Virus record (IMG/VR): IMGVR_UViG_3300018080_000168
Length of the DNA: 20,000 nucleotides
Reading direction: 5' to 3' (one strand)
From: an uncultured virus (IMG/VR IMGVR_UViG_3300018080_000168)
Taxonomy: Duplodnaviria; Heunggongvirae; Uroviricota; Caudoviricetes
The notes below the pieces were generated by a model. That model made no database searches. It was not told the DNA's origin and saw only the letters and a list, made by a program, of their open reading frames with translations. Positions 1,096-18,411 of this stretch are shown here, piece after piece (positions within the stretch are counted from its first letter, which is position 1; every line of letters begins with the position of its first letter). A program made the position numbers and the translations under genes.

Positions 1096-1779
1096 ATGTT
1101 AAGAAACTTTGACCGAGAAGGGTATCAAAGAGGTGGTCCGAAGTGGAGGGTTGCCGATGCCTATGTTCGAAGGGCTATAAAGGAGAATTTGCATAGGTCT
1201 CCTCAAGGTAAAATGCCTAATAAATGGTTGAGGAAGATAACAATAACTGATGAAAATTCCGACCAGGATAAGATAAAGAAAATAGCAGGTCTTATGTCTT
1301 TACTTGCACACCAATCCAGTAGAAGCAGAATTGTTAGAGATGTGGCAAGAGCAATCATACGTGCTTATAATGTAGAGCCAAAGGATTTTGAAAATGAATT
1401 ATGGGCTTTGCAGCACTGGATAATTAATAATATTCGATATACATTTGATACTGGAGAGCAATTCCAAACTCCGCAAAGAGTTTTGCTCGACTGGTATAAT
1501 CACCATGATGGAGCAGACTGTGATTGCCTTACGATGCTTTATATCAGTTTGGCAAGAGCATTAGGACATGTTAAATTAGCAATTGGATTGCTTGACTCTC
1601 GTGGAGATGGCACTATCTCCCATGCAATTGCTTTGGTTAAGTTGCCAAAACCAAAAGAGCCTTGGATGTGGAAATGGATTCCAATTGAATTGACAAAGAA
1701 AGTTACATTTGGATGGATGACACCAAAAGTAACCAAGCTGTTTGCAGCACCGATTAAAGCAGGAGGTGGTGTGAGATGA
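1096..1779 (+). CDS. Transglutaminase-superfamily protein (putative Cys protease)
   Basis: WIINNIRYTFD..QTPQRVL...GADCDC (Cys 1519)...SHAIALV (His 1621)...WIPIELT (Glu 1687 where family usually has D of 'DPT'). ATG 1096 preferred over TTG 1087. Confidence 0.8.
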   Translation: MLRNFDREGYQRGGPKWRVADAYVRRAIKENLHRSPQGKMPNKWLRKITITDENSDQDKIKKIAGLMSLLAHQSSRSRIVRDVARAIIRAYNVEPKDFENELWALQHWIINNIRYTFDTGEQFQTPQRVLLDWYNHHDGADCDCLTMLYISLARALGHVKLAIGLLDSRGDGTISHAIALVKLPKPKEPWMWKWIPIELTKKVTFGWMTPKVTKLFAAPIKAGGGVR

Positions 1780-3884
1780 TTGAACTTGAAAATGGCCAAA
1801 TGGCTATGTTTCCAGAAGGTGAGGGTACAGCTCCACATGATGTGGGCAAGATGTGGATAGTCAATCCTCCAATGAGAGTTGTTGCTGATTTGAAGGATGT
1901 CAGTGGTCCAGAGAAAGAGAAAATACACCAGTTAATTGCTGAAAAACTTGAAAAAGCTGGATTTAAAGTACAGGTAAAGAAAGGTAAAGTTTATTCAGAT
2001 GGACCTCCTACATCTATTATGAATTTTTTGAAGAATTTCTTGCCTCCAGCAAGTCAGTTTGCACAATTCGATAAAAATAAAGTGCTCATTAAATTGAGTC
2101 CTAATCCAAAAAACTTTGGATTTAGTGGGACTGTTATGCCACTAAAGAAAAATCCAAAGGTTAATGTAGTTACAAATCCACAGTTTAAAATTGACGATTT
2201 TGTAGTTAAAGTTGGCTCTGACATAAAGGGAAGAGTTTCAGGTTCCGATAATGGCAAAGTAATTGTCCAATGGGATACTGGAGACACAACAGAGGAACAG
2301 CCAACATCACTTACTAAATCTTCTGGTCCGCAATTAATTGATGTCAAAGAAGCTGACCACGGATTTGATTGGACAGTTTATAGATATTCTGGTGCAGTTT
2401 ACGATTGGGGTAATTCAGACAGTGAATATCTTGCCTTGGCTGACGCCAGACGTGCATATAATGAGATGGTTCAGGAGGAAACAAGATATAATCCTGATAG
2501 ATATGGCCAGGGAATCTATTCTGATGAAAGTCTTGCAAGATTAAGAGAAGACGCTTGGAGACATTTCGAAAGTATGAAGATAGTTCCAACAATAGAAGAA
2601 ATTTTCAATGATATGTGTGATGCCATAGAAGACGAAACAGGATATTGCGATGAGAACATAGTTGCAAGATTCTTGGGAATGGACGAAGATGATGAAATGG
2701 AAAATCCAAAGTTCAAACGGAAGGCCAGACAAGATTCATTGGAGCCAGAAGAGGAATACAGGGCTTGGATGCACAAACAGGAAGGAATGGGGATGATGAA
2801 TCCAAACATTTATGCTGATGTAAGAGACCCAAATTTCACACCAAATCCCATAGGAGCAGCTATTGGTGGCTTGGCAAAAGCAGGAGCAAGAGTAGGAGCT
2901 CGGGCTGGTATGAAAGCAGCAAAGTATGGAGCAAGGAAGGGTGCAGGTCTTGCGAAGGAAGGAGTAAAGTCTGGTGCAAGATATGGAGCCAGGAAATTGC
3001 TTGAATATTCTGCTCCGCCACAAGGTTATGCTTATAATGGACCACCATATGGTTGGTCTTGGCAAGATTTGCAGAATGCAAAAGTGGAGCTACAAGAGTT
3101 ACGGAAACTCGGAGACCCAAGATATAAGGATTTAGAGGAGCAAATCGATGAAGTTCAAGTTTATTATGATGAAATAAGTTCAAATCCAGGTGATAATATG
3201 CAGATTGTAGAGCCAAATCCCCCTAAAAAGACAATGTTTTTCGAACCGAAATACAAAAAGTATGCAAAAATTATTACTGTCAAATCGATTCCAAAGGCAA
3301 AGGAATCTTTGAACAAACTATCTGCAGAATGGAAAAATGCTGATAGAGAAAAGAAAAGAAGGATAATCAAAGCTGCTACATTGGCAGCAAACAGAGCAGT
3401 TGGCATGACCAAAAGGAAGAAAAGACCACTGCGACAAAAAACTAAAGATGAGAAACTCAAGATTGCGAAACTGTATCGTGAATGGATTAAATCACATTCA
3501 CTTTCCTCAAACCCAAATGGAGACGAGGAGGTGCCTGAAATGGAAGAAACACAGCCAATAGAGGAGCAGGAGGAGGAAATTCAAGAGGACAAAGAGATGT
3601 ATGAAAACAGTCCTCCTGAACAAAATCCACCTGACGAGTCCCAAGAGGCTTCTGATGAAGCAAACGACCCTGAAGAGGAGGAAACCAAAGAAGAAGAAGA
3701 AACAGAAGAGCAAGAGGAAGAGGAAGAGCCAAGTGCGGTTCCTGTTGTGAATCCTCCTGAAGCCGAAGAAAAGCCTTCGGAACATCTTCTGAAGTTCCTT
3801 GGATGGGGAAATCCTGTTGGCACTGACAAGAAAATCAAAATATACAGGTGTGTCAAGTGCAACAAAACATTCAGGGGTGCGTAA
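1776..3884 (+). CDS. 702-aa modular protein with 14 NP motifs (SH3/KOW-like module, Gly/Ala amphipathic segment, basic block, Glu-rich tract, C-terminal CxxC)
   Basis: Long ORF, GGAGGTGG SD, ATGA overlap with upstream protease gene. Confidence 0.9.
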   Translation: MIELENGQMAMFPEGEGTAPHDVGKMWIVNPPMRVVADLKDVSGPEKEKIHQLIAEKLEKAGFKVQVKKGKVYSDGPPTSIMNFLKNFLPPASQFAQFDKNKVLIKLSPNPKNFGFSGTVMPLKKNPKVNVVTNPQFKIDDFVVKVGSDIKGRVSGSDNGKVIVQWDTGDTTEEQPTSLTKSSGPQLIDVKEADHGFDWTVYRYSGAVYDWGNSDSEYLALADARRAYNEMVQEETRYNPDRYGQGIYSDESLARLREDAWRHFESMKIVPTIEEIFNDMCDAIEDETGYCDENIVARFLGMDEDDEMENPKFKRKARQDSLEPEEEYRAWMHKQEGMGMMNPNIYADVRDPNFTPNPIGAAIGGLAKAGARVGARAGMKAAKYGARKGAGLAKEGVKSGARYGARKLLEYSAPPQGYAYNGPPYGWSWQDLQNAKVELQELRKLGDPRYKDLEEQIDEVQVYYDEISSNPGDNMQIVEPNPPKKTMFFEPKYKKYAKIITVKSIPKAKESLNKLSAEWKNADREKKRRIIKAATLAANRAVGMTKRKKRPLRQKTKDEKLKIAKLYREWIKSHSLSSNPNGDEEVPEMEETQPIEEQEEEIQEDKEMYENSPPEQNPPDESQEASDEANDPEEEETKEEEETEEQEEEEEPSAVPVVNPPEAEEKPSEHLLKFLGWGNPVGTDKKIKIYRCVKCNKTFRGA

Positions 3885-3886
3885 AG

Positions 3887-5863
3887 ATGGATTCGTGGGA
3901 TGATGATATCTATGCACCCCACCTTGGGGCATCTCCATTTCTCGATGTGGAGACTGGCTTTGTCGATAGTGCTTACAGAGTCAGACACCTTTCGGATACT
4001 GAAAAATTGGTTGCAAAGCAAGTCAATCGTGCAAAAGTTGCCGATATGATAAAGAAAAAAGGGAAGAAACCAAAGTATGTTAAATTCTGGAAGGTTCCAA
4101 AACCAATCCAATTGCCCAAAGCGACATATCCCGAGGCTGTGCGGGAAGACATCAAGAAGTGGGCATACAGGAATCCAGTGAAATATGCTGAACTTCAATC
4201 CAAGGCACAAGCATCCAAAATCTCCAGGCAATGGAAAACAAAGGTAAAAAAGAAGAGAAATGAATTGCGAAAACAAATGATGATTGATTTGCAAAAACTT
4301 ACCAAAGAGATGAAGGAAGCAGTGAAAACAGGTGCTGTTTCAAGCAAAATGGCAAATGAGTTATTCAAGCAGAAACGCAAGGAATTACAGAACAACATGA
4401 AATTACAATTACAGGCTATTAAGAAGTCTTCCCAACAGGAAATGAAAGCTGACAAGGTTAAGTCTTTAGAAGTTTACAACAAAGTTGTCAGAGCAAGAGG
4501 GAACTATATTGACGCCAAGGCAAGAGAGGCAGAAAGTGAAAAACGTAGAATCCAGGGTTTGGTCCAGAAAGGTGAAATGGACCCAAAAGTAGCCAATCCA
4601 ATCATTAAATCTCTTGACCAGCGAATAAACAATCTACAGCTTGGCAAGAAACAGCTTCAGCAAAAGGCAATAGGCAACAAAGTTACTTTCTTGGCAAAAC
4701 ATAAGATTCTGCCAGAAGATAGAGCAAGAGAACTTTCTGATAAAATAAAGAGAGGAGCCAAAAAAGTTGCAGCTGAAAAAATCATTACAAGTCCAAAGAT
4801 GCAGAAGGAAAAGAGCGATTTGTATTCTGGAATCAAATGGGAGCAGGCATATGAAGCAGCAATATCCCATGCAGAAAATGTTGGTGCTTCTTGGGTGATT
4901 ATTCCGCTGAAAAAGGAGAATGAAACAATCACTGAAATCAAAATGCCTTTGAAAGTTGCCAAGACAAGACTTGCCAGGCTGAAGATGGGAAACAAGCTGC
5001 ATGAAGGCAGGATAACGAAAATGAAGGGCAAGGAAAAAGTACCTTCGGGTGTTATTGCTGTTTCACAGTATGGCCAAAGGATAGGTCCAGAGGCTATTAC
5101 TGCACAAATTAACTATATCAAACAGCAATCTGAAAAGGGCAAAATTAATAAAAGTGTTGCAAACAAAGCCATAATGCACTTGATGAAGGCGAAACAAATG
5201 CTGTATGTAAAAGGTCCAAAGAGAAGAGTAATGGTTGTACCTGTTTGCAGAGAAGCTCTAAAGAGAGGAGCTCCTGCAGGAGAAAAAGTTGCTGTAAGCA
5301 AGCCAGGAGTACCCATAACCAAGAAGAAGGCAATTCCTGCAACTGTTCCAACTGCAATTCCGCACAAAACATATGTTAAAACTGAAGTCAAAACAGTTAA
5401 GCCGAAAGCAAAGATTGCAAAGAAAGTTGCAAAGAAAGTACCAGTTGCGAAAAAAGCTGCTGTGCCAGTTCCTGCAGTAGAGGAAGACATGTTTGAGTCT
5501 CTTGTAAGTGCATTTACAGACATGTTCAAAGGATTTGACTTATTTGGCAAGGAAGAAGCACCAGCAACTGTCGTTAAGAAGACAACTGTTGTCAAAGTGC
5601 CTAAAAAGGTTGCAGTAGCCAAAAAGAAAGCCAAAAAAGTAAAAAAGAAGGCTGCACCAGTGAAGGGACCGAACAAATTGGTGCCAGATGAGGCAAAGAA
5701 AACAGAAAGTGGAGGATTTGATTTCTTCCCCGAAGATTTCCTGAAGGTCAATCTATTTGGTGTACTGCCGACTGACCCAGACGAATTGCCAGATGCCTAT
5801 GTGCCTCAAGATTCAAATTTCTACAATGTTCAAGCAGAAAGAGGCTATGATGAGATAGTGTAG
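3887..5863 (+). CDS. Large Lys-rich protein with coiled-coil region and histone-H1-like K/A/P/V tail; possible DNA-condensing core protein
   Basis: ATG 3887 after AGGGGTG, 2 nt after upstream stop (preferred over GTG 3848); KKVAKKVPVAKKAA-type tracts; acidic termini. Function is inference. Confidence 0.85.
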   Translation: MDSWDDDIYAPHLGASPFLDVETGFVDSAYRVRHLSDTEKLVAKQVNRAKVADMIKKKGKKPKYVKFWKVPKPIQLPKATYPEAVREDIKKWAYRNPVKYAELQSKAQASKISRQWKTKVKKKRNELRKQMMIDLQKLTKEMKEAVKTGAVSSKMANELFKQKRKELQNNMKLQLQAIKKSSQQEMKADKVKSLEVYNKVVRARGNYIDAKAREAESEKRRIQGLVQKGEMDPKVANPIIKSLDQRINNLQLGKKQLQQKAIGNKVTFLAKHKILPEDRARELSDKIKRGAKKVAAEKIITSPKMQKEKSDLYSGIKWEQAYEAAISHAENVGASWVIIPLKKENETITEIKMPLKVAKTRLARLKMGNKLHEGRITKMKGKEKVPSGVIAVSQYGQRIGPEAITAQINYIKQQSEKGKINKSVANKAIMHLMKAKQMLYVKGPKRRVMVVPVCREALKRGAPAGEKVAVSKPGVPITKKKAIPATVPTAIPHKTYVKTEVKTVKPKAKIAKKVAKKVPVAKKAAVPVPAVEEDMFESLVSAFTDMFKGFDLFGKEEAPATVVKKTTVVKVPKKVAVAKKKAKKVKKKAAPVKGPNKLVPDEAKKTESGGFDFFPEDFLKVNLFGVLPTDPDELPDAYVPQDSNFYNVQAERGYDEIV

Positions 5864-5869
5864 GTGACG

Positions 5870-7564
5870 ATGATAGAAATGAATTGTCCAAACTGCAAAA
5901 ACATAATCCTTGAGCCGAGGAAAAGCAACCCACCAGGGGCATTAGTATGTCCCATGTGTGGTAAAGGATGGATTCCGACAGAGATTCGCTCTAATCCAAC
6001 CAAGCCAACTCGCACTGGTGGTCGACACTACAAGCCATCTGAACGTCAAAGGATAATGAAAACCAAGGAATTCAAAAAATGGTGGAAGGAAAGATGGCAT
6101 GATAGTCATGGTGGTATGCCACAGCGTTGGCCAGGGGATAGTGGCAAGTTTCATGCATTTATGACAGATGTTGGCAAATTTGCATCACGAAAGGGCAAGA
6201 AAGGATGGCCAGATGCAACTTGGCTGTCAGATAAAGCTCGTTCAGATGTTACACAAGTCCGCAAATACCTTCATGAAATCGGAGAGGGGAAACGTACTAT
6301 TGGCGGACAGAAAGCCAAGAGAAATCCTAATATGCTTGTTGAGTGGGATGAAATTGAAGAAGAAATAGTATATGGCTTTTTAGAGGAAAATCCTGGCAAT
6401 TGGGATGACAATCCTGTACCAGAAGTCAAGAAGGTTGAAAAACACATCAGGAATTGGCTCAAGCTAATGGGACAGAAAAAATACAAAGAAGCTGAAGAAA
6501 TTAATGTAAAGAAAATCAAACCTGTTCTTGGCAAAGGTGTATTACCCTATGCTCCTTCAAAGAAGGAAATAAAAGACCCAAAGAAGTTCCTGAAACTTGT
6601 TAGCTGTATTTACCAAGTCGGCAAAAGGTCAGAATTAGCTGGAGAGGGTCCAGTCAGCCCATACGGTGTTTGCAGAGCCAGTGTTATGAAAAATCCAAAG
6701 TGCACACTCGAAGATGTAAAGAGCAGATTGGATACCTTGGACCTTAAAGATGTAACTTATTTCCAAGATAAAGCTGAAATTGACAATGGGAAAGCTGAAA
6801 GAAGATTCTCAAGTCAGACACTTCTTGAAACTCGCAGAGGGGTTGAGGACGATGATTTTCCCGAATTAACCAAGAAAGGTAAAGAAATTCTTAATGAAAG
6901 ATTGGCAAAGCATTTCAAAGGAATGCCAGTAACATACAGTTTTTACGAAGGTGAAAAGGGAGATTTCTTTATTATTGTGGAGTTGGTGAAGAAAAATCCT
7001 CCAAGCAAGGAAGATTGGGAAGATGCTATTGCAGGCGAAGGATGGGCTATTCAAGATTATACCAATATGCTTGATGGTGCTACACCAGAAGAGCGAAAAG
7101 TTCTCGAGCATATTATTGAAGAAGAAAAAGAGCATCTTGAAGAATTGCTCATGCTGAAACATTGCAAACTTAATCCAGGAAAAGCCTATGAATATTTGAA
7201 TCCGAAGCCAACAGGTTATGGTGAAGACCCACAAGCATATTGGGTTACTGTGCTTGTGCATCCTAATGGAGAGCATACACTGGTTCAGGATTGGGAAGGG
7301 AAAATCGTTGTAAGAGGTTCGAAAAAAGGAGCAATGGCTGTTGGCAAATCTATGCAGGATGACGTCAAGATGGCAGGAGGCCAAGTCTCGGGAAAGATAG
7401 TTCCTGTTAGACTTTGGGATGTTGGACAAGATTTTGGTGCAGAAGGCCATGAAATTTCATATAGACCAAATCCAGAAGGTGGTGGTGATGAATCCTTTCG
7501 AGAAAATGGAGCCGAAGGAAGTGTTCGAAATAGTGTACAAGGAGGTTCGGAACAAAATGCCTGA
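5870..7564 (+). CDS. Modular protein with 10 NP motifs (N-terminal Zn ribbon, basic module, half-ferritin-like module)
   Basis: CPNC..CPMC; EDAIAGEGWAIQDY...IIEEEKEHLEEL; start could be 5864, 5870 or 5879 (AGGTGA at 5862). Confidence 0.9.
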   Translation: MIEMNCPNCKNIILEPRKSNPPGALVCPMCGKGWIPTEIRSNPTKPTRTGGRHYKPSERQRIMKTKEFKKWWKERWHDSHGGMPQRWPGDSGKFHAFMTDVGKFASRKGKKGWPDATWLSDKARSDVTQVRKYLHEIGEGKRTIGGQKAKRNPNMLVEWDEIEEEIVYGFLEENPGNWDDNPVPEVKKVEKHIRNWLKLMGQKKYKEAEEINVKKIKPVLGKGVLPYAPSKKEIKDPKKFLKLVSCIYQVGKRSELAGEGPVSPYGVCRASVMKNPKCTLEDVKSRLDTLDLKDVTYFQDKAEIDNGKAERRFSSQTLLETRRGVEDDDFPELTKKGKEILNERLAKHFKGMPVTYSFYEGEKGDFFIIVELVKKNPPSKEDWEDAIAGEGWAIQDYTNMLDGATPEERKVLEHIIEEEKEHLEELLMLKHCKLNPGKAYEYLNPKPTGYGEDPQAYWVTVLVHPNGEHTLVQDWEGKIVVRGSKKGAMAVGKSMQDDVKMAGGQVSGKIVPVRLWDVGQDFGAEGHEISYRPNPEGGGDESFRENGAEGSVRNSVQGGSEQNA

Positions 7565-7886
7565 TGTTCAAGTTTCTTTCGAACAATCACCTGAAATTGA
7601 AGCAATGCACGAAGAAAGTCCAAGGATATTTTGCGGAAGTTTGCCTGGTCAAATATATTATTGCAAAGATTTTGCAGATTTGCCAGTCATGAACCAGTTT
7701 GGCATAATGTGGCATGAATTCGGACACCAAATTCACTATATTCTTAAAGATGAAGACCATCCTATATTATTGCAATTACCAAATGATGACGAATTAATTG
7801 CAGATTATCTTATCGAAATGATGTTCAATAAGCGTATCTTCTATTCAGGAGATAACAAATTACAATATGTAATGGAGGCTACCTAA
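7488..7886 (+). CDS. Small HExxH zincin-like metallopeptidase (ImmA/IrrE-like minimal domain)
   Basis: WHEFGHQIH (7710-7736) plus downstream DELIADY; ATG 7488 after GAAGGTGGTG preferred over 7419. Confidence 0.65.
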   Translation: MNPFEKMEPKEVFEIVYKEVRNKMPDVQVSFEQSPEIEAMHEESPRIFCGSLPGQIYYCKDFADLPVMNQFGIMWHEFGHQIHYILKDEDHPILLQLPNDDELIADYLIEMMFNKRIFYSGDNKLQYVMEAT

Positions 7887-9934
7887 TGCCCATAGAAATT
7901 GATATAATAGGCCAAGCCGAAGGTCGAAAGGCTTTCCAACCACTTCCGAGTGAGGTTGTAGTTGGTAAAAAAAGACTTGCAATAAGTGAGAAACCTGCTG
8001 GCAAATTAGAAACGAGAAAGGCTTCTCTCGTACCGAAAGCTGGATTTGTAGAGCCGAAGACCTTCAAGAAACTGATGAATGAAAATCAGAAGTGGAGGAA
8101 AGCTGCTTGGGACATGCAAACCATTGCCAAATATCATGGTGAAGGCGGACCAGCTAAAATGGCAAACAAAGTTGAGGCTGGTAATAGAATTCTATATGTT
8201 AGTCCTGGATTTGCATACAAGTGGCACACTTTCTTAAGAGATAAATCTTTCGAAGCCCTTAAACTGCTTGTAAAGGCTACAAGAGAGAAGGATGCCATTG
8301 AGAGGAAGAAAAGCCTTCAACAAGCAATTCGAAGGATGGCATTCTTGCGAATAAAATTTGGAGCTTCTCCAGATACAGTATCACTCAAAATAGTTGATGA
8401 TATAGGAGATGCAGGAATGTTTACCACCCAAGACCAGACAACTTTATATCAAGGTATTGATGACTTTGAAGGACTTGGTGAGATAAGCAAGTTTTATGGA
8501 ACAGAAACTGGCAGAGAGTGGTATCTTGCAAGAGACCCCAGAGAGCCAACCTATCATATGGGCAGTGGTGGGACAGTGAATTATGGTCTGCGTGTTAGAG
8601 GTGGCGGTGGCTCTATTTACAATACATCAGGTGCAGATGTTCCTACCCTTACTACTCCTAATCAAGCACCAGAAATGTTGCCTCTGGCACCACAGCAAAG
8701 AAAGGAAAGAATGCTCATGCCAGAACGTGGTGCTCCATTGAGGTATATCGTAGAGGACCTTGGTGAAGATGGCCAAACTCTAAAAGACCTTGGATTTTGG
8801 GAAGGAGCTCTTGATGTTGGCTATGCAGTTGAAGAGGATGGTCTTTACATGCCAGAAAATCAGAGAATCGATTTCCGTGTGATAAAAGCAACTGATTTCG
8901 CATCATTGCCAAGCGATGGTGCGATACTTGGAGCTGCAGAAGAATATGAAACTGTACCAGCTGTTGATGTAATGGGAGACCTGGGATTCGACAGTATGCT
9001 TGATGAAATATTTGCATTAGATGTGCCTGCAAAAAGGCCAAAGAAGAAGACATCTTTTGCAGCAAAAGCAATAGCATTAGCCAAGAAGAAGGCACAAGAA
9101 TTTGCTGCAAAGAAGAAAGCACAGGAATTAGCAAAGAAGGCAAAAGCACAGGCAAAAGCTGGTGCAAAAGCTCCAAAACCAGCGAAACCAGTTCCTCTTA
9201 TTCCTTGGATTACTAAATATGCAGTAATTCCGAAAATTGAGAAACTTCTTAATGAGAAAGACCTTACATCTCAACCGAGGTCTGCTGCTTCAACTGTAGT
9301 TTGGTTAAAGATTCTAAAAGCTGGCAAAATTCCTTCCAATAGACAGCAAAAAGAAGCACAAAATGCATTGAAATTTTTGAGGTCTCTTCCAAACAAAGGG
9401 ATAAAAGTTTCTGTTCCAAAGGTAATAGAATCCAAGAAGACACAAAATGCAAAGAAAGTTGCAGCTTCAGCAGGAAAAGGGTTGAAGGAAGGCAGACTTG
9501 AAGCAGCAAAAGCAGCACAAGGATTGGCAAAATTGGCAAATGAAGCAAAGAAAAAGTCAATGCTCGAGAAAGCCAAAGCCCAAAAGAACAAACAGGAAGC
9601 TGCAAAGTGGAAACAAAAGGGTGTACTTGCTCTTGCAAAGCACCATGAAGAAGAGGCAAATAAAGCAGAGCTTATGTCTGAAGCAGCTGAAAATACAGCA
9701 TTCGACCTTGCCAATGAGGCAAAGGAAACTGCATTGTTTGCAACTGACGCACCACTCGAACTTGCTACAAGTCTTTTCAACAACATTATACCAGAGGCAA
9801 AAGAAGCAGCTGTTACAACTGAAATACTTGGACAGGAAATAGACAAACAGCAACTAATTTTGCTTGGCGGTGCTGCCTTAATTGGAGTGATTGCTTTGGG
9901 TGGATTTGCTGCAAAGAAAAGGAGGTCGAAATAA
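7886..9934 (+). CDS. 682-aa protein with C-terminal TM anchor, Lys/Ala helical region and several xLG motifs; putative virion membrane protein
   Basis: LILLGGAALIGVIALGGFAA-KKRRSK terminus; GGAGG SD; TAATG coupling. Confidence 0.9.
   Translation: MPIEIDIIGQAEGRKAFQPLPSEVVVGKKRLAISEKPAGKLETRKASLVPKAGFVEPKTFKKLMNENQKWRKAAWDMQTIAKYHGEGGPAKMANKVEAGNRILYVSPGFAYKWHTFLRDKSFEALKLLVKATREKDAIERKKSLQQAIRRMAFLRIKFGASPDTVSLKIVDDIGDAGMFTTQDQTTLYQGIDDFEGLGEISKFYGTETGREWYLARDPREPTYHMGSGGTVNYGLRVRGGGGSIYNTSGADVPTLTTPNQAPEMLPLAPQQRKERMLMPERGAPLRYIVEDLGEDGQTLKDLGFWEGALDVGYAVEEDGLYMPENQRIDFRVIKATDFASLPSDGAILGAAEEYETVPAVDVMGDLGFDSMLDEIFALDVPAKRPKKKTSFAAKAIALAKKKAQEFAAKKKAQELAKKAKAQAKAGAKAPKPAKPVPLIPWITKYAVIPKIEKLLNEKDLTSQPRSAASTVVWLKILKAGKIPSNRQQKEAQNALKFLRSLPNKGIKVSVPKVIESKKTQNAKKVAASAGKGLKEGRLEAAKAAQGLAKLANEAKKKSMLEKAKAQKNKQEAAKWKQKGVLALAKHHEEEANKAELMSEAAENTAFDLANEAKETALFATDAPLELATSLFNNIIPEAKEAAVTTEILGQEIDKQQLILLGGAALIGVIALGGFAAKKRRSK
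9080..9151 (+). repeat. Imperfect 27-nt coding tandem repeat (AKKKAQEFA / AKKKAQELA / KKAKAQ)
   Basis: Read directly from sequence. Confidence 0.6.
9203..9391 (+). repeat. About 60-aa 'PWxxKYxV(I/L)PKI...LRxxP' domain, copy 1 (copies 2 and 3 at 11192-11368 and 11441-11620)
   Basis: PWITKYAVIPKIEKLLNEKD...EAQNALKFLRSLP aligns with PWMIKYEVIPKIGALLKERD...EAQNILAYLRALP and PWIAKYNVLPKIANLLKED...LLTKLRACP. Confidence 0.85.
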
Positions 9935-11169
9935 TGACGATGACAAGAATAGTGCAACCGAGGATGGAGGTTAAGTCTGTAGCACCAGCTGTTCCTATGG
10001 ATTTTTCATATTTCCCAGATGTATTATCACCATTTTCCGCAGAGTCGAGAATGTCAGATACAAAAGCAGTTCGTCCTTATTCATCATATCTGAAACCAAC
10101 AGGCACTCCAAAAGTAAGGCTGAAACTGATGGTTACAGGATATCCTGGATATGGAGTTGCAAGATTCTATGAGAAAGTTCCTGGCACACAAGATAGATTT
10201 GTAGTGAAGGAAAAATACAAGCATTTAGTAACTGACAAAAGAATTGATGCATTGCCAATGGTTATAAGAAGGATGCCTCCAAAAGCAATTGGGCATCTTT
10301 ATCGTTTTGACCCAACAAGAGGATTCCACATATTGAAACCACAGTATAGACGCTTTGCAATAAGAAGTTGGGATATGGGCAACATTGGTTGGGGATTTCC
10401 TAAAATCAAAATTCCGAAGATTGATATTAAGAAAAAAGTAACTGGAGTTGCAAAAGCAGTATCTTCAAAGGTTAAAGGTGGCACGAGTGCTGTTGCCAAG
10501 AAAGTTAAAGGTGGCACAAGTGCAATTGCCAAGAAGGTTAAAGTTCCTAAATTATCAATGCCAAAGGCTGATGCCTTAAAGTCTGTAGCAAGTGCTGCAA
10601 AGAACAAAGTAATAAGTGCAAAGAAAGCTGCAAGTAGCTCTGCCAAATATCTTGCAGGCAAGGCCAAAGATGCAGCAAATTCTGCAAAGAAACTTGGTAG
10701 TGCTGCTTCAAAGAAAGCATCTGAAGCAAAAGAATGGGCTGCAAGAGGCATGCACAAAACAGCAGAAGCAGCAAAGGCAACTGCAGGTAAATTAAAAGGA
10801 GCAGCAGTTGCAGCAGGTGCAAAGGCTAAAGAGTATGCAAGGAAGGCAAAGGATGCAGCAAAAGCAGCAGTAACAAAGCCAATTGATGCTGCAAAATCTG
10901 TGATAAACAAGGTCAAAGAAACAGTTGGAGGAGCAATTGACAAAGTCAAAGGTGTTGCTGCTAAACCATTTGAATGGCTTGGGAAAATTGGCAAAGTAGT
11001 TATGTATGGTGCTTTGGCTATTGGTGCAATTGCATTTTTCTACATTATTTACAGAATAAGCCAGAAACAAAAGCAAGTAGCTGCACAGAAGGCATCTACA
11101 CCAACATTGCCAAAGGCACCTGCAAGACCAACATTTGTTCCAAGACCAAGACCAGCAGGAGGTGTCTAA
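9934..11169 (+). CDS. 411-aa membrane protein with Lys/Ala 11-mer amphipathic repeats and a near-C-terminal TM helix
   Basis: KVKGGTSAVAK/KVKGGTSAIAK; TM VVMYGALAIGAIAFFYIIY; GGAGGT SD. Confidence 0.9.
   Translation: MTMTRIVQPRMEVKSVAPAVPMDFSYFPDVLSPFSAESRMSDTKAVRPYSSYLKPTGTPKVRLKLMVTGYPGYGVARFYEKVPGTQDRFVVKEKYKHLVTDKRIDALPMVIRRMPPKAIGHLYRFDPTRGFHILKPQYRRFAIRSWDMGNIGWGFPKIKIPKIDIKKKVTGVAKAVSSKVKGGTSAVAKKVKGGTSAIAKKVKVPKLSMPKADALKSVASAAKNKVISAKKAASSSAKYLAGKAKDAANSAKKLGSAASKKASEAKEWAARGMHKTAEAAKATAGKLKGAAVAAGAKAKEYARKAKDAAKAAVTKPIDAAKSVINKVKETVGGAIDKVKGVAAKPFEWLGKIGKVVMYGALAIGAIAFFYIIYRISQKQKQVAAQKASTPTLPKAPARPTFVPRPRPAGGV
10468..10543 (+). repeat. 33-nt coding tandem repeat (about 2.3 copies)
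   Basis: aaggttaaaggtggcacgagtgctgttgccaag / aaagttaaaggtggcacaagtgcaattgccaag / aaggttaaag. Confidence 0.85.
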
Positions 11170-11170
11170 A

Positions 11171-12064
11171 ATGGCACCACCTGGACCATCACCATGGATG
11201 ATAAAGTATGAGGTAATTCCAAAAATTGGAGCATTATTGAAGGAAAGAGATGTTCCCCATGCAAAGAAAGTTTCTATCAGCCAATTCATGGCACATTTTG
11301 TACAAATGCCATTTGCAAAGCAAAAATCTGAAGCACAGAATATTTTGGCATATTTGCGAGCATTACCGAGCCATAAAGAAGTAGGCAAAATGGTTGAAGC
11401 TTCTGTGAAAAAAACAGAGGGCAAAACATATGGTACATCTCCGTGGATAGCAAAATATAATGTGCTTCCCAAAATTGCAAACCTTTTGAAAGAGGACAGA
11501 GTTATTCCTACTAATACTAAAACAGTTGCAACTAATTTCCTCAAAAATTGGAAAAGTATGCCACACGCACAGCAAGACTCACAAGGAAAAAGTTTGCTTA
11601 CAAAGTTGAGAGCTTGTCCAATAGTAAGAACACCTGTGAGTCCAAAAATTAAGCCACCAACTGTGAAACCTGCTATTGCAGTGAAACCAGCAGTGAAACC
11701 AACCAAAAAGGTAATGACTGCTGATAAAGTCAAAAAGCAGATGCAGAAACGTGTGGAGGAAGCTTTGAAGAAGGCGAAGGCACAGCGAGCAAAAAAGCCA
11801 GTACCGAGTGAAAAGAATCTTGTTAAAGAAGCAAGTAAATCTGTTCAGAAAGCACAAGCCAAATACACAGAGGCAAGTCAAGAGGCAACTGCATTCGAGA
11901 AAGAAAAAGCAGCAGAGACAGAGGCAATTCTACAGGCTATGGGTGCAAAGACACCTGTTGAAGAGGCTGTTGAAGGATGGACACCAATTGAAATGGCAGC
12001 ACTTGCAGGTGTATCTCTCGTTACAGTAGGTGTTGTAGCGTGGATAATAATAAAAAAGAAGTGA
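11171..12064 (+). CDS. Membrane-anchored protein with two PWxxKY domains, Pro/Lys linker, coiled coil and C-terminal TM
   Basis: ATG 11171 after GGAGGTG (preferred over 11135); ends AALAGVSLVTVGVVAWIII-KKK. Confidence 0.9.
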   Translation: MAPPGPSPWMIKYEVIPKIGALLKERDVPHAKKVSISQFMAHFVQMPFAKQKSEAQNILAYLRALPSHKEVGKMVEASVKKTEGKTYGTSPWIAKYNVLPKIANLLKEDRVIPTNTKTVATNFLKNWKSMPHAQQDSQGKSLLTKLRACPIVRTPVSPKIKPPTVKPAIAVKPAVKPTKKVMTADKVKKQMQKRVEEALKKAKAQRAKKPVPSEKNLVKEASKSVQKAQAKYTEASQEATAFEKEKAAETEAILQAMGAKTPVEEAVEGWTPIEMAALAGVSLVTVGVVAWIIIKKK

Positions 12065-12070
12065 TGGAAA

Positions 12071-12484
12071 ATGTCGCCAAACTTGAGAGGAAGAAGGATT
12101 AACCCAGGAGACATCAATCCTGGCGATGCTCGAAAGGGAATCCCTTTGAGAGATGGCAGCGGTCGTGGTATTAGAGCTAATTATAATCGTGGTGGGCTTG
12201 GTGAGGTTGGAGTACCAAAAAGAGACGGAAGTGGGAGAGGAATACGAGCCAATTACAATCGTGGCGGTTGCAGAGAAGCTCCATTGCTTGGTGAGCTGTC
12301 AGACATTGAGGAATTGGGAGGATGGATAGAGGATATCAAACATTTCGGTGGTAAAACAGGACGAATAATCGGTGTAGTTGTGTTTGTTGGTGGTTTGGTC
12401 CTTCTTTATCCGAGAATGAAGCATGCTGCAAAGGAAACCAAGAAATACAAAAATATTGCACAGCAAAGGAGGACACAGCCATGA
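12071..12484 (+). CDS. Arg/Gly-rich small membrane protein with duplicated RDGSGRGIRANYNRGG
   Basis: TM IIGVVVFVGGLVLLY; internal peptide repeat. Confidence 0.85.
   Translation: MSPNLRGRRINPGDINPGDARKGIPLRDGSGRGIRANYNRGGLGEVGVPKRDGSGRGIRANYNRGGCREAPLLGELSDIEELGGWIEDIKHFGGKTGRIIGVVVFVGGLVLLYPRMKHAAKETKKYKNIAQQRRTQP
12137..12271 (+). repeat. Protein-level duplication G(I/V)PxRDGSGRGIRANYNRGG (12137-12196, 12209-12271); third related copy at 13727-13789
   Basis: 16 identical residues; 12 of the 16 codons differ synonymously. Confidence 0.9.
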
Positions 12485-13054: not shown

Positions 13055-14392
13055 ATGATTGAGACTTGGAGAAGTCTATTGGCAAGACAGCCAGTCATAG
13101 GTAATAGGCTAATTCTGGCCGATATAGGCAAGGATAGACCTGTTCCTGTTAGACTTTTCCCACAAACAATCACTCCTTGGGATTATTCTTTTGCATTAGA
13201 GATTCTTAAAGATGTAAATTGCGATACTTCCCATATACAGAGAGGATTACAGTTGGCTATTGAGGAGCCAAAGAGAAATCCCATTTTCCGAACTGCACAG
13301 GATGTTGAAGATTATGCCAAAGAAATAATTGCTGATGAATTCGACATAGATTGGACAGGGAAATATGAGTTCATTGATTGTTGGGATGATGAAGGTTGGA
13401 TTGAAGCAAAAATTCGTAACAAAGAAACAGGAGAGGAGATTGAGGTTTTGCTTCAGGAATTTGCAGAGCCAGAATGGGACCCAACAGAGCAAACAAGTTA
13501 CATGCAAACTGGATATGAAGTCTATCAACCAATGGATTATTGGTCTTTCTTTGGTTGGGAGGAAAATCCCAGATTTTGTCCCAAGTGTGGAGCTTTGTTA
13601 AAATCAGGATTGCCCTGCCCAAGATGTGAGCCAGAAAAATACAAAATGGAGCATGCAAAGTTTGTTGAAGTAACCAAAAAGAATCCTCCAAGACCATTTA
13701 GACCAGGAAGAAGAGGTCCTCCATATGGCATACCAAAAAGAGATGGAAGCGGATTGGGACGCAGAAGAAATTTCAATAGAGCAGGATGTCGACCCAATAT
13801 AGCACCATTGGTTGCAATGGCAGGGATGCAAGCAGCTCAAACAGGTGCAAAAGCAGGATTAGGAGCAGCAAGAAAAGCAGAGACTGGTATTGCAGAATTC
13901 CTCACACCAAATGCACCAAGAAGAAGCAATTACAAATTCAAAAATCCAAGCCTCAAAATGGAATTCATAGACAAATTCCGTGAAATTCAATCTCTTGGTA
14001 GAGGCTATGATTGGACAGATGATTTGGATAGAGCATATAGTGAAATGCTCGAGAAATATCCAAACTTGACCAAACAGCTTTATATTCTGTATGTTTCGAT
14101 TGCAGAGAAATATCACTCACACGGTCTTCCTCTTGACATTGGAGAGAAATATATTGATATTTTCTGGAAGGATGAAAAGCAAAGTTGGATTGGTGTAAAA
14201 GAGGATGGGAGTGAAGTGGAGCTTCCAGCTTGGCTTAATTCATTTGACGAAATATTCTGGGATGAATACATAGGCGATTATCGTGGTATGCATGCTCCCA
14301 GCATAAGAGCAAATCCACAAATTTACGAACCCTTACGAAAGGTTAATATAGACCTTTTAACAGGTATAGAAAGAGGTGATGAAAGTGTCTAA
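13055..14392 (+). CDS. 445-aa modular protein with 5 NP motifs (acidic module, Zn ribbon, RDGSG peptide, Gly/Ala helix, acidic module)
   Basis: NP at 13277, 13565, 13682, 13943, 14312; CPKC..CPRC. Confidence 0.88.
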   Translation: MIETWRSLLARQPVIGNRLILADIGKDRPVPVRLFPQTITPWDYSFALEILKDVNCDTSHIQRGLQLAIEEPKRNPIFRTAQDVEDYAKEIIADEFDIDWTGKYEFIDCWDDEGWIEAKIRNKETGEEIEVLLQEFAEPEWDPTEQTSYMQTGYEVYQPMDYWSFFGWEENPRFCPKCGALLKSGLPCPRCEPEKYKMEHAKFVEVTKKNPPRPFRPGRRGPPYGIPKRDGSGLGRRRNFNRAGCRPNIAPLVAMAGMQAAQTGAKAGLGAARKAETGIAEFLTPNAPRRSNYKFKNPSLKMEFIDKFREIQSLGRGYDWTDDLDRAYSEMLEKYPNLTKQLYILYVSIAEKYHSHGLPLDIGEKYIDIFWKDEKQSWIGVKEDGSEVELPAWLNSFDEIFWDEYIGDYRGMHAPSIRANPQIYEPLRKVNIDLLTGIERGDESV

Positions 14393-15170
14393 ATTAGATT
14401 GCCTTGCAGAAATTCAGGTAAATTTAGCTGAATTGGCAGGTGAAGAACGAGCTGAAGAGTTATTCAGGAAATTTATTCATGAATTGAGGCTTATGAGCAG
14501 AAAACAGGCTATGGAAAGAATTATAAAGGCGAGAAATCGACTTCGACAGTTGACTATTGAGCCAAGATTATTCAGACCAGAGCCAGTTAAAACAAAAATA
14601 AACATGCCCAAAAACACAAAAATGGTATTGGAAAAGGTCCCAGGCGAGTTCATTGCAAATGATTTTACAGAGATTTTGCCTAATCCAGAAGACCTTCAGC
14701 CTGTTAATGATGTTCCTGTTAGAATCGATGGGATTGGGAGTTATCCTTATCCTGCATCAAAAGAAGGTCCTGTTCCAGATGTCCCAGTAAGAATTGATAA
14801 TATTGGCACTTATCCTTACACACCACCAAATGCAGCTCCAGAAATGGACCCACAGCCTTTTAACATGGGTAATATTGGTACACTTTTGCCACCGAGAACA
14901 ATTCAAAAACCTTGGCTGAATGCAAGTCAACAGCTTTTCCATCCAGGAGACTTTGTTATAAATGTAAATGACCAAAGAGTTGGTCTTCTTAAAGCAATTC
15001 GAGGAGAAGAAGCGACAGTAGTATTCAAAAATGGAGAAGCTTGGAAGATGCCAATGCAGGAATTGAGACCGTATTATGGAACTGTAAGAGAGTTGAAAAA
15101 GGTTGATAAAATCGACAAAACTGCAGAATTAGCCTATAAACTTCGATTGGCTCCAGGAGGGAGAGCATGA
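14385..15170 (+). CDS. Hypothetical protein with 23-aa-period repeat and C-terminal SH3/KOW-like domain
   Basis: GTG 14385 after GAGGTGA (alternatives 14376, 14379); FHPGDFV...VGLLKAIRGEEATVVFKNG...ELRP. Confidence 0.85.
   Translation: MSKLDCLAEIQVNLAELAGEERAEELFRKFIHELRLMSRKQAMERIIKARNRLRQLTIEPRLFRPEPVKTKINMPKNTKMVLEKVPGEFIANDFTEILPNPEDLQPVNDVPVRIDGIGSYPYPASKEGPVPDVPVRIDNIGTYPYTPPNAAPEMDPQPFNMGNIGTLLPPRTIQKPWLNASQQLFHPGDFVINVNDQRVGLLKAIRGEEATVVFKNGEAWKMPMQELRPYYGTVRELKKVDKIDKTAELAYKLRLAPGGRA
14700..14819 (+). repeat. 69-nt-period coding repeat PVxDVPVRID(G/N)IG(S/T)YPY x2
   Basis: Read directly from sequence. Confidence 0.85.
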
Positions 15171-15901
15171 AGAGGATAACTTATGGTGATGGAGTCGGTT
15201 TGCTCAAAAATAATCGGAATATTCCAATTCCAAATCCAAGATTTTCCTCAAAACATAGATTTATTACTACAGTTGATGGCAAACCAGTTGAATTTGCAGT
15301 TGGACTCATGAAGCTGAAGCCAGAAAGAATGATTGAAGAAGTCAAAAAGGTAATGAAAGACCAAGATGGCAACAGCGTTCAGCAAGTAACATATGTTAAA
15401 GCAACTGATGAACTTTTGCCATCTGGAACTACTGGCAGAAAGTACATAAATGAAAAAGGCCAAACCATTCCATCATCTGAAATACGATATTATATGCCTG
15501 AAGATGTTGAAAATGGAGGAGAAGAGATACAGCAATTTACAAAAACTGAAACTGTAGAAGTTGCTAAATACCTTCCGAGAGGCTCTGAGGAACTGTATCT
15601 GCCAGAAGACCAGTTTGAACTGCATCCAGAGTCTGAAAGTGATGCATGGGGACTTTGGCAACTTGCAAAATATTTGATATCGTCTGACCAAATAGCAACA
15701 GCAATTCTTGTTCCAAGGAAAGGATGGGCGAAATTTGGTGTTTTGCTTATTCCTTATGTAGATGAAGAAACAGGTGAGTTTGCAGTAATCGCAAGATTCG
15801 TTAGAGAAAAATTTGAGTTTAAGAATCCTCTCAAAATTCCGCAAGAACCAAAGGAAAAGAAAGGGAAAGAGCTCAAAACAGGTGTTGAAGAGCTCTTTTA
15901 G
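15167..15901 (+). CDS. Putative divergent Ku-like DNA end-binding protein
   Basis: Pattern G..IP..EI / TETVEVAKYLP...ELYLPEDQFELHPE...GLWQLAKYL...IATAILVPRKG..GVLLIP resembles the prokaryotic Ku core by eye; close to a ligase gene. The CDS itself is secure; the product call is tentative. Confidence 0.5.
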   Translation: MKRITYGDGVGLLKNNRNIPIPNPRFSSKHRFITTVDGKPVEFAVGLMKLKPERMIEEVKKVMKDQDGNSVQQVTYVKATDELLPSGTTGRKYINEKGQTIPSSEIRYYMPEDVENGGEEIQQFTKTETVEVAKYLPRGSEELYLPEDQFELHPESESDAWGLWQLAKYLISSDQIATAILVPRKGWAKFGVLLIPYVDEETGEFAVIARFVREKFEFKNPLKIPQEPKEKKGKELKTGVEELF

Positions 15902-16254: not shown

Positions 16255-17538
16255 ATGAAAAAATGGAGCGACAAATCACACCCACTGGTGGAAGTAGCAA
16301 AAAACCACAAAAAAGTGCTAAAAATGAAAGCAGAAAGCATAGATGTAGTTGTTTCCACACCTTTTAGAAATCCCATTGTTTCAACAATTAAATTTGATGG
16401 AGAGCACAATATAATTTCTTGGACAAAGGGAGACTCTGATTGCACAGTTTGCAATAGAGGAGGAACTGTTCGTACAGACCTTAATCCCACAATGGAATTA
16501 GCTGGAATATTGCAAAGCCAAGGATACACAGAGGCAACTTTTGCAGGTGAGTTATATGCCATTTGGGAAAATGGAAAGAAAATGGACTTAAAAGATGTCA
16601 TGCACCATATAAAAGCTCCAAAGGGAAAAGAAGAGGAGAGCAGAATTAGGATTGCATTATTTGATATAATATCACTGAATGGTAAACCAATTTACGATAA
16701 ATATTGGAAAAAAATATTGTTGCTTGGAGAAATACTTGGTTCAGACACTGATTATGTTCATGCTGTTCCTGCAGTTCAAGGAGATATTAATGTTGCAAGG
16801 GATATGTGGGAGCATGAGGTATTGGAGAAAGGATTAGAAGGATTAGTTATTCATTCTAATGGTATAATCAAGGTGAAAGTAATTAATACTATGGATGTTG
16901 CTGTAATAGGAATGACAGCATTTGGAAAGAGATTTGAGCAGGGATTGGCGAGTGCGTTTCTTGTTGCATTTCAAGCTCCAGACGGAACATTTCTTGTTAG
17001 TTCACATGTTGGAGCTGCTGCTAAAGAAAAGGAACAAAAAGAATGGTATGATTGGATTATGGCAAATAAAGTTGGAGAAACTGTAATCAATAATGAAAGA
17101 CATATCATGTGTAAGCCAATGAGGATTCTTGAAGTTGGGGCAAATGAGTGGTATTGCTATGAAAATCCAAAAGTGGCAGGATATACATTTGATGGCAAAG
17201 AGTACAAGTATGCAGGAATGTTTCCTGGTGTTAAAGGACAGAAGCCTCGATTATTGAAAGATGAGAATGGCAGAATTAAAGAGCGAAAGGATAAAAGCAT
17301 CAATCCAATTGATTTAAGACTTACACAGGCTCCAGATTTTGATGAGAAGTGGCTTACACCTTATATGAAAGGTTCAAGACCGAAGCCAAAATCCGAATCT
17401 ACAGTTGTGGAGCGAAATCGTGCTGCACTTGCATCAATATTCTCTGGTGGGTCTTATGCACCAAAATCACATTTAACAACTTCTGAAGTTGAACAAAAAA
17501 ATAAGGAAGTTCTCAAGCAAATCTTTGGGGGTTCATAA
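16255..17538 (+). CDS. lig: ATP-dependent DNA ligase (nucleotidyltransferase + OB domains)
   Basis: Motif I KFDGE (Lys 16390), III FAGELY, IIIa IALFDII, IV EGLVI, V KVK..TMDVAVIG, OB-fold GKRFEQGLASAFLVA..HVG. Confidence 0.85.
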   Translation: MKKWSDKSHPLVEVAKNHKKVLKMKAESIDVVVSTPFRNPIVSTIKFDGEHNIISWTKGDSDCTVCNRGGTVRTDLNPTMELAGILQSQGYTEATFAGELYAIWENGKKMDLKDVMHHIKAPKGKEEESRIRIALFDIISLNGKPIYDKYWKKILLLGEILGSDTDYVHAVPAVQGDINVARDMWEHEVLEKGLEGLVIHSNGIIKVKVINTMDVAVIGMTAFGKRFEQGLASAFLVAFQAPDGTFLVSSHVGAAAKEKEQKEWYDWIMANKVGETVINNERHIMCKPMRILEVGANEWYCYENPKVAGYTFDGKEYKYAGMFPGVKGQKPRLLKDENGRIKERKDKSINPIDLRLTQAPDFDEKWLTPYMKGSRPKPKSESTVVERNRAALASIFSGGSYAPKSHLTTSEVEQKNKEVLKQIFGGS

Positions 17539-17591: not shown

Positions 17592-17939
17592 GTGGACATG
17601 CTAATAGCCGATAGTGATTCAAGAGCAGGAGGTTGCTATTCTGGAATTTTTGGAGGCATCGAAGGTCTTGGAGAAGAAATTATGCTTGGTGAATTGACTC
17701 TTGATTCATATGGAATCGGATTGCCACAGCCATCTCCAAGAGAAGAAGTGCCGAGTTCGGATAAAGTTGTTACCAAAGCAATTGTTGCAGATAAAAACAC
17801 AGGAAAAAGATTTGGAACAAAGGTTCGAACTGTAAAACAGGAAGCAAAAGTTATGCTTTCTGACAAAGATAACAGACAAACACTTGTGCTGCTTGGGCTC
17901 GCAGGAATTTTCGGATATATGTTATGGAAGGAGAGATAG
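17592..17939 (+). CDS. 115-aa C-terminally anchored membrane protein with IEGLG motif
   Basis: TM TLVLLGLAGIFGYMLW-KER; GGTGA SD; start 17592 or 17598. Confidence 0.8.
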   Translation: MDMLIADSDSRAGGCYSGIFGGIEGLGEEIMLGELTLDSYGIGLPQPSPREEVPSSDKVVTKAIVADKNTGKRFGTKVRTVKQEAKVMLSDKDNRQTLVLLGLAGIFGYMLWKER

Positions 17940-17940
17940 A

Positions 17941-18411
17941 ATGAAGTGCCCAAAATGCAAGACAACAATGGATTATTATGGTCTTGCAGCTAATCCAAGT
18001 GGTGAGAATTTTCCTGCTTATAGATGCAAGAAATGTAATAGCTCTTTCATTGATTTGAAAAGGAATCCACCAGCAGAAAGTAGTGCTGTAGTAGAGCAAA
18101 GTTTGGACGAATCTACACTTCCTAAATCGTATGGTCCAGCGATAAAACTCTTTGAAGAGTTCAATCGCAAACCAGCAGATAAGATAATACAAGCAGATAT
18201 CAAACTTCCAGATAATTACAAAAATCCATTGGTATGGCTTGGAAAGATTGCAGGAGTAATATACATTAGCGACAAAGAAGGAAGGAAAGGCCAAAGATAT
18301 ATACACGAATGTGATGCACCTTATCCAGACTTCTTTGTTACAGCTGACAGAAAGACATATATTATTTCTGGAGGCAAATTGGAGCTTAAAGATGGCTGGT
18401 TATATTATTGA
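17941..18411 (+). CDS. Zn-ribbon plus globular domain of unknown function
   Basis: ATG 17941 after GGAAGGAG (preferred over 17884); CPKC..CKKC; three NP motifs. Confidence 0.85.
   Translation: MKCPKCKTTMDYYGLAANPSGENFPAYRCKKCNSSFIDLKRNPPAESSAVVEQSLDESTLPKSYGPAIKLFEEFNRKPADKIIQADIKLPDNYKNPLVWLGKIAGVIYISDKEGRKGQRYIHECDAPYPDFFVTADRKTYIISGGKLELKDGWLYY

Follow-up and report, generated by a model that had tools for sequence, protein, structure and literature searches.

Several viruses mature their proteins with a protease of their own: the adenovirus protease acts on core protein precursors, pS273R of African swine fever virus (ASFV) cuts pp220 and pp62 at Gly-Gly-X, and gp21 of T4 removes capsid-targeting leaders. 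The bond between Asn and Pro is moreover the site of autocleavage in FlhB/YscU, where it is part of an NPTH motif, and in mu1 of reovirus and VP5 of aquareovirus, each of which has a single site within a conserved folded motif. Here we analyze a stretch of 20,000 nucleotides of an uncultured virus (IMG/VR record IMGVR_UViG_3300018080_000168, termed the window, in which positions are counted from the first letter), and describe modular proteins that are punctuated by the dipeptide Asn-Pro (NP).

Two further systems are relevant. For RsgI, the accessible part of PMC10328401 states that Asn-Pro autocleavage needs a folded beta-turn. The polyvalent proteins of phages and plasmids combine 2–15 distinct domains per polypeptide in variable architectures, and the accessible part of the article on them (Iyer, Burroughs, Anand, de Souza and Aravind, 2017; PMC5512222) proposes that they are processed by an associated zincin-like metallopeptidase. 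In that part of the article "Asn-Pro" occurs 0 times and no junction motif is described. In our survey of the literature, no account of modular proteins punctuated by Asn-Pro was found for viruses of prokaryotes.

Asn-Pro is over-represented in proteins of the window

A first-pass annotation, made from the letters of the window, had noticed many NP in two large proteins and proposed that they are cleavage sites or capsid-loading tags of modular polyproteins. Every one of its counts was reproduced, including those for the smaller NP-bearing proteins. We estimated the number of NP expected in each protein from 5000 shuffled sequences. The 702-amino acid (aa) protein encoded by 1776-3884 has 14 NP compared to 2.64 expected, with 14 of its 37 Asn preceding Pro, and the 566-aa protein encoded by 5864-7564 has 10 compared to 1.53, with 10 of its 24 Asn preceding Pro. 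Not one of the 5000 shuffles reached the observed number in either case, so that the enrichment suspected for both large proteins is borne out. An excess is also seen for 13055-14392 (5 versus 1.19, p=0.003), 17884-18411 (3 versus 0.48, p=0.006), the ATPase fusion at 18311-19999 (3 versus 0.85, p=0.05) and the DNA ligase at 16255-17538 (4 versus 0.80, p=0.006), but not for 3848-5863 (2 versus 1.30, p=0.39). The three tail-anchored membrane proteins at 7886-12064 (1,402 aa) contain no NP, as had been claimed; since only 1.84 are expected, their absence is not significant when taken alone.

When all dipeptides are scanned without bias, NP ranks first in both large proteins. Over 19 open reading frames (ORFs) of the window N-P occurs 52 times, compared to 14.8 expected (observed/expected 3.5), and it is the only X-P pair that is enriched, the ratios being 0.70 for D-P, 1.09 for S-P and 1.17 for T-P. 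Thus, the excess does not reflect a general habit of placing a cap residue before proline. As a rough control we used five unrelated viral loci from IMG/VR, spurious frames included, in which 59 NP were counted and 47.9 expected.

The nucleotide sequence AAYCC is found 52 times in codon phase 0, compared to 14.7±3.7 expected (0 of 2000 codon shuffles), and is not enriched in phase 1 (6 versus 7.3) or phase 2 (4 versus 4.6). The excess is confined to the coding phase and is therefore a protein signal rather than a DNA motif. Pro codons at NP follow background usage. AAT is the Asn codon at 46 of 49 NP, compared to 137 of 185 (74%) for other Asn (Fisher p=0.0017), which is maybe a codon-pair effect. 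In summary, there is a true excess of NP, which no other X-P pair shares and which is conserved, and the NP seams are a feature of the proteins.

NP seams coincide with module borders

The 566-aa protein, whose NP have their Asn at aa 22, 44, 154, 176, 183, 277, 378, 437, 446 and 536, can be divided into five modules: A (aa 5-47, zinc ribbons), B (aa 52-185), C (aa 187-278), D (aa 285-375) and E (aa 376-438), the last a rubrerythrin-like half-ferritin at which the relative P0008 matches Pfam Rubrerythrin. (P numbers denote metagenomic proteins.) An exhaustive HMMER search of metagenomic proteins yielded 41 matches other than the protein itself, each of which covers one or two neighbouring modules and never the whole protein. 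All five modules are found in these relatives, either alone or within other architectures. The 84 ends of high-scoring segment pairs (HSPs) in the 566-aa protein lie at a median distance of 4.5 aa from an N|P bond, compared to 19 aa for randomly placed NP, and 62% of them are at most 6 aa away, compared to 19.5% (P 0.002-0.005).

In an AlphaFold2 model of the 566-aa protein (17-row alignment, mean predicted local distance difference test score (pLDDT) 63.5) modules C, D and E are folded confidently. The model has coil at each of the 10 NP; five are placed between confidently folded blocks, and in five of the 10 cases the NP is 3-7 residues ahead of a helix. A Foldseek search with the whole model returned nothing at E≤0.001.

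Thus, the NP seams are found at module borders to within a few residues. The same arrangement holds for the bracketed modules that the first-pass annotation had listed: NP at 6995 and 7172 flank the half-ferritin, those at 13565 and 13682 a zinc ribbon, those at 19262 and 19397 a Cys4 module, and those at 3216 and 3510 a basic block. Not all NP follow this rule: some fall within the adenylation domain of the ligase, and others at the starts of helices in module C.

Relatives are rearranged at NP seams

The pooled 41 module homologues contain 181 NP, compared to 44.3 expected, and 18 of the 41 have at least five. For these and later homologue counts we left out P0001 and P0006, which are the window's own proteins, and P0012, a 1,084-aa perfect-repeat protein that had been matched via 18 stretches. 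Of 74 internal HSP ends in the relatives, 31 have an NP within 8 aa, compared to 11.1±2.9 for random placement (0 of 3000), and 20 further ends are protein termini. The clustering of HSP ends at NP that is seen in the 566-aa protein, and with it the coincidence with module borders, therefore extends to its relatives.

Conservation of individual seams was followed in the half-ferritin module, in which NP is found with its Asn at position -13 from GEGWA in 16 of 26 instances that come from very different architectures. In the other instances the protein either starts there or has GA, SA, NA, ES, PG, NM or KV at that offset. The ATPase fusion has four relatives with 47-52% identity; its N318-P319 is invariant in 5 of 5 sequences and the next NP in 4 of 4 sequences that span it. 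NP is conserved at homologous positions in these alignments.

Several free-standing relatives start or stop at a seam. P0022 begins M-P-LTY, with Met replacing the seam Asn, P0038 begins at the position of the seam Pro, P0010 begins MP at the start of module C, and P0045 begins directly past the NP position. At the other end, the last residue of P0028 is an Asn, at most two residues from the seam Asn, and P0016 and P0010 stop 1-2 residues short of it. Fusion is seen with the 244-aa protein encoded by 15167-15901, in which a leader of 22 residues precedes an NP at aa 23: P0021 carries this module as well, but joined to the end of a half-ferritin module (BLASTP, query 10-225 versus 68-277, E=1.2e-9), and N23/P24 correspond to N81/P82 of the P0021 seam (hand count, no gap assumed).

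The 702-aa protein shows exchange of the interior. A word search with its whole sequence finds no match but itself. It has a conserved N-terminal "handle" (..VNPPMR..GPPT..) and a conserved C-terminal zinc-ribbon "handle" (..FLG..NP..C..C.KTF) around a variable interior. These two ends are all that it has in common with P0015 and P0020, the interiors of which hold different modules, one of them module B of the 566-aa protein. Thus, the proposal that modules are shuffled at NP between homologues is supported by both large proteins, and the alignments identify the seams as the points at which modules are swapped, fused or split between relatives.

The seams are not spelled alike in all relatives. 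P0035 and P0027 have NP almost only as EQNP. At seams that are homologous to NP, NP-poor relatives have FGA, FSA or YNA (before the half-ferritin) and GAP or RAP (after module C). When we looked for [FY]-small-Ala as an alternative seam motif, only "YS" in P0040 stood out (8 versus 1.76). Because nothing else is statistically notable, we keep such seam dialects as a lead and not as a finding.

Across 25 relatives the only Pfam matches above the family cut-offs are to rubrerythrin, MIB_HERC2, a C39-like peptidase, thioredoxin and a Zot-type ATPase; zinc-ribbon, DnaJ-type and other matches are below cut-off. The MIB_HERC2 domain, which is mostly eukaryotic, is found at aa 570-622 of P0013 (E=3.9e-13), among the modules of an NP-punctuated protein. 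P0014 (736 aa) combines module C with a Zot-like ATPase, a Peptidase_C39_2 domain (E=6.6e-13), which is thus embedded in the polyprotein, and a thioredoxin, and has three NP between module C and the ATPase.

Two candidate proteases flank the NP-punctuated genes

Directly upstream of the 702-aa gene, on the + strand at 1087-1779, is a gene for a 230-aa protein without NP that resembles transglutaminase-fold cysteine proteases and is our candidate seam protease. Its Atlas feature score is 0.96, its structure match "meets the bar" for Transglut_core, and its nearest Atlas clusters are 83-100% viral. The AlphaFold2 model (pLDDT 84.4) has its best Foldseek matches in the putative cysteine protease 3isr, LapG and CPR-C4 (E 1e-3 to 5e-3); for the matches including transglutaminase 2 the probability is 0.84-1.00 and E is 1e-3 to 1.4e-2. 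Twelve relatives with 52-70% identity make it the best conserved of the genes tested, the ATPase fusion reaching 47-52%. D144-C145-D146-C147, H179 and E201 are invariant in all 13 sequences, as is D170, and E201 or D170 might be the third catalytic residue. Moreover, its relative P0053 and the NP-protein relative P0008 come from contigs of the same source that are both 3,733 bp long, and its relative P0057 and the NP-protein relative P0015 from contigs of the same source that are both 13,700 bp long. This suggests that the protease gene and the NP-protein gene are linked in relatives.

The first-pass annotation had named two transglutaminase-like genes upstream of the 702-aa gene. The fold and the invariant Cys and His support this for 1087-1779, and not for the other, a 166-aa ORF on the + strand at 522-1022 that has no NP and whose translation contains a GDCEDWA motif. 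It has no match in Pfam, PHROGs or the PDB and no significant similarity to 1087-1779. A PDB sequence search with either protein gave nothing below E=0.1.

A second candidate is the small ORF at 7521-7886 (+ strand), which follows the 566-aa gene and encodes an HEFGH (HExxH) motif, possibly that of a zincin-like metallopeptidase. Its Atlas structure has template modelling scores of 0.54-0.61 to DUF2201_N, M48 and YgjP-like metallopeptidase clusters, all "under the bar", and it has no Pfam match; its similarity to the HExxH end of P0009 is not significant. Most proteins in the Atlas clusters nearest to either enzyme-like gene (1087-1779, 7521-7886) are viral. At its 3' end (7419-7564) the 566-aa ORF shares 44-146 bases with the HExxH ORF, which is read in a different frame; the extent varies with the start codon that is chosen for the HExxH ORF, the Atlas record of which starts at the GTG at 7521.

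Processing sites, linkers or tags

The reading that we favor, at a rough probability of 45%, is that the NP seams are processing sites of modular polyproteins. Many soluble proteins of the element would then consist of small autonomous modules (~20-110 aa; zinc ribbons, the half-ferritin, basic blocks) joined at NP seams, and an endopeptidase encoded by the element would cut at or next to N|P after translation and free the modules as separate small proteins. The likeliest enzyme would be the conserved transglutaminase-fold cysteine protease immediately upstream (1087-1779), with the small HExxH protein (7521-7886) as the alternative. NP that are buried in folded domains, such as those of the ligase and of module C, would be inaccessible and remain uncut.

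A number of observations weigh against processing. The flanks of NP in the window have no extended consensus except a preference for Pro at +1 (9 of 51), which is thin for a protease site. No NP is near 43 of the 74 internal block ends in relatives, and five long relatives with the same modules show no NP excess (P0009, P0018, P0026, P0036 and P0040). At helix starts in module C the window has DP or SP, but aligned relatives have NP (4 of 4 at one position and 3 of 4 at another); at least some NP are therefore ordinary structural turns. The first-pass annotation had itself cautioned that the ligase has four NP. This is correct, and two of them (aa 39 and 77) fall within the adenylation domain matched by Pfam, so that a cut there would abolish function. 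As to the enzyme, the match of 1087-1779 to Pfam Transglut_core (PF01841; E=4.9e-4) scores 20.8 bits, below the cut-off of 23 bits, its Foldseek E-values are only ~1e-3, and its linkage to the NP-punctuated genes in relatives is deduced from contigs of equal size and not from DNA that was seen.

A bolder version, which we put forward tentatively from the sequence comparisons and with less conviction than processing as such, is that NP is a two-residue processing code across an unnamed group of uncultured viruses. The transglutaminase-fold protease would cut N|P to give dozens of mini-proteins that start with Pro, modules would plug in by recombination at any seam, and sister lineages with a small residue plus Ala would use dialects that co-evolved with their proteases.

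Close behind the favored reading as processing sites, although less likely than it, is the explanation that the chains are never cut. NP would be a lineage-specific, rigid and deamidation-proof turn that insulates mini-domains and tolerates recombination, and the products would be intact "polyvalent" chains. The position of NP in coil 3-7 residues before helices in five of 10 cases of the AlphaFold2 model is consistent with such linkers, as are the NP within folded domains of the ligase and module C and the relatives that retain the same modules without NP. Moreover, delivery without cleavage is described for some polyvalent proteins of phages and plasmids in the accessible part of PMC5512222. 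However, the other helix-capping pairs, D-P, S-P and T-P, are not enriched, and in none of the 26 half-ferritin instances does DP, SP or TP take the place of the border NP. Free-standing genes that start at Pro or finish at Asn, and lineage-specific dialects such as EQNP that resemble recognition sites, also speak against uncut linkers.

It is improbable that N|P cleaves itself by asparagine cyclization, the chemistry of asparagine peptide lyases, with no need for a protease. This would account for the conservation of only two residues, and the scissile pair would be identical to that of RsgI, in which a conserved Asn-Pro within a beta-turn is the site of self-cleavage (PMC10328401, accessible part). 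The known cases, however, need a defined fold according to the same source, whereas the flanks are variable here and the model confidence is low. TH follows none of the listed NP, the NP in the ligase domain would break too, and homologues with GA, SA or NA at the seam could not use such chemistry. The analogy to FlhB/YscU and reovirus that the first-pass annotation had drawn is thus a poor fit, as the NP are in variable linkers without conserved flanks.

Slightly less probable again is that NP serves as a recognition tag in a role other than proteolysis, be it particle loading or a reaction of the Asn side chain (deamidation or cross-linking) that is carried out by the transglutaminase-fold enzyme. 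The superfamily does have amide-transferring and Asn-acting members, with transglutaminase 2, factor XIII and PNGase among the fold matches, and the 702-aa family with its constant ends and variable interior is reminiscent of a cargo carrier. The closest fold matches are proteases, however (3isr, LapG, CPR-C4), no capsid gene was identified in the window, and nothing links NP to packaging.

We also considered ribosome skipping of the 2A/StopGo type (D(V/I)ExNPGP) and rejected it, because the window has no NPGP: none of its five NPG is followed by Pro. Finally, a DNA-level motif (AATCC), or else chance or composition, is a most improbable source of the pattern: the bias to AAT at NP would fit a DNA motif, but the codon-phase test with its unenriched out-of-frame AAYCC rejects it, Pro codons track background and NP positions are kept in relatives at 30-50% protein identity, whereas chance and composition disagree with the shuffles, none of which reaches the observed counts, and with the near-expected number of NP in the five unrelated loci. 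In all, what the first-pass annotation observed is confirmed, and its interpretation is partly supported.

The element and its other proteins

We read the window as part of an uncultured virus-like element. Its DNA has a GC content of ~40% with a purine-rich coding strand, and all ORFs of at least 110 aa that look coding are on the + strand, tightly packed or overlapping. No tRNAs and no capsid gene were found in it. Pfam and PHROGs recognize few genes: the transglutaminase-like gene, the DNA ligase, the Zot/FtsK-like ATPase fusion and zinc ribbons. The translations of six ORFs close with one hydrophobic tail anchor each. Proteins of the window itself are recorded on a contig of 73.9 kb, and the 702-aa protein is not known outside this element.

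The relatives are known solely as metagenomic proteins. Searches of IMG/VR viral contigs with both large proteins and an alignment of the ATPase fusion detected no related DNA, and the same holds for metagenome contigs of the Joint Genome Institute (JGI). The genomes of 185,579 species, searched with the ATPase or the half-ferritin alignment, contain no relatives. Among GenBank phages the ligase has no match, and the ATPase fusion has just one, at 28.6% identity, to a Zot gene in a record of 6.3 kb. Five IMG/VR loci of 56-62% GC that were matched by the half-ferritin alignment turned out to be unrelated phage-like contigs without NP excess, and are those used as the control above.

All remaining NP-bearing genes are likewise on the + strand. 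The small Cys-containing ORF at 219-491 (90 aa), absent from the list of the first-pass annotation, has three NP, one of them five residues from the start (MASPNP...), and has no Pfam match. The protein encoded by 3848-5863 (671 aa, two NP) is lysine-rich and largely helical and belongs to no Pfam or PHROGs family. The 445-aa protein encoded by 13055-14392 (five NP) has its zinc ribbon (CPxC...CPxC) between the NP at 13565 and 13682, and the 175-aa protein encoded by 17884-18411 (three NP) is a zinc-ribbon protein as well. The ATP-dependent DNA ligase (16255-17538) matches Pfam DNA_ligase_A_M at aa 27-201 (E=7e-10). Pfam has no match for an SH3-like module claimed to start at 2175, nor for the protein at 15167-15901 that had been called Ku-like.

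The ATPase fusion (18311-19999) joins a Zot/FtsK-like P-loop ATPase (Pfam Zot, E=3e-4) to a Cys4 module, located between the conserved NP at 19262 and 19397, and to a SWIM-like CxC..CxH module. Its C-terminal tail is a Gly-Glu repeat that is encoded by 23 copies of the 6-base unit AGGCGA (19861-20000); in its relatives the place of this repeat is taken by Gly/Glu-rich tails with CxxC pairs. SWIM-like CxC...CxH motifs, read from the sequence, are also found at the C-termini of P0013 and P0040, so that they occur in unrelated module proteins. Two further repeats were seen. PKRDGSG(R/L)G(I/R)R.N(Y/F)NR.GC, for which no family was found, occurs twice in a tail-anchored protein of 137 aa (12071-12484) and once in the 445-aa protein (13055-14392). 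Two of the membrane proteins share (S)PW(I/M).KY.V(I/L)PKI..LL(N/K)E.D, with a single copy in the one of 682 aa (7886-9934) and two copies in the one of 309 aa (11135-12064).

Comparison with known systems

If the seams are cut, viruses of prokaryotes would have a polyprotein strategy in which the site is reduced to two residues and the protease has a fold that is not known for that role. Annotation would change as well: one ORF would stand for many small proteins, and this would explain long "orphan" ORFs without full-length homologues. The protease and its site would form a compact pair and possibly a tool. Even uncut, the seams are a practical key by which orphan viral proteins can be split into searchable modules, as the 41 module-level relatives of the 566-aa protein illustrate.

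How the locus relates to polyvalent proteins can be judged from the accessible part of PMC5512222. Both have many unrelated small domains per polypeptide of a mobile element, as seen here in the five-module 566-aa protein and the 702-aa family, and both show extensive shuffling. For both, an associated peptidase is the proposed processing enzyme, the candidates here being the adjacent HExxH ORF and the cysteine-protease-fold gene. Unlike in polyvalent proteins, a conflict repertoire of anti-restriction proteins, methylases, ADP-ribosyltransferases (ARTs) and nucleases was not found in the window with Pfam and PHROGs, and the candidate protease has a transglutaminase fold.

With the maturation systems of adenovirus, ASFV and T4 the locus shares a short motif that recurs at many junctions in several proteins, a conserved protease encoded by the element, in our case a candidate, and N-terminal leaders before the first site. 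It differs from them in that the motif is Asn-Pro, the protease fold is another one, the units would be very small and number dozens, and we identified no genes for virion proteins in the window. The dipeptide at the putative scissile bond is the same as in FlhB/YscU, mu1/VP5 and, according to the accessible part of PMC10328401, RsgI. In contrast to these proteins, the many sites of the window are in variable linkers of low model confidence, lack NPTH and are replaced by other residues in some homologues. Finally, although the protein encoded by 1087-1779 is only 12-16% identical to the LapG-type bacterial cysteine proteases (4fgp, 4fgq, 4u65) and its Pfam score is under the cut-off, it resembles them in its predicted fold and in the Cys and His that are invariant in it and its 12 relatives.

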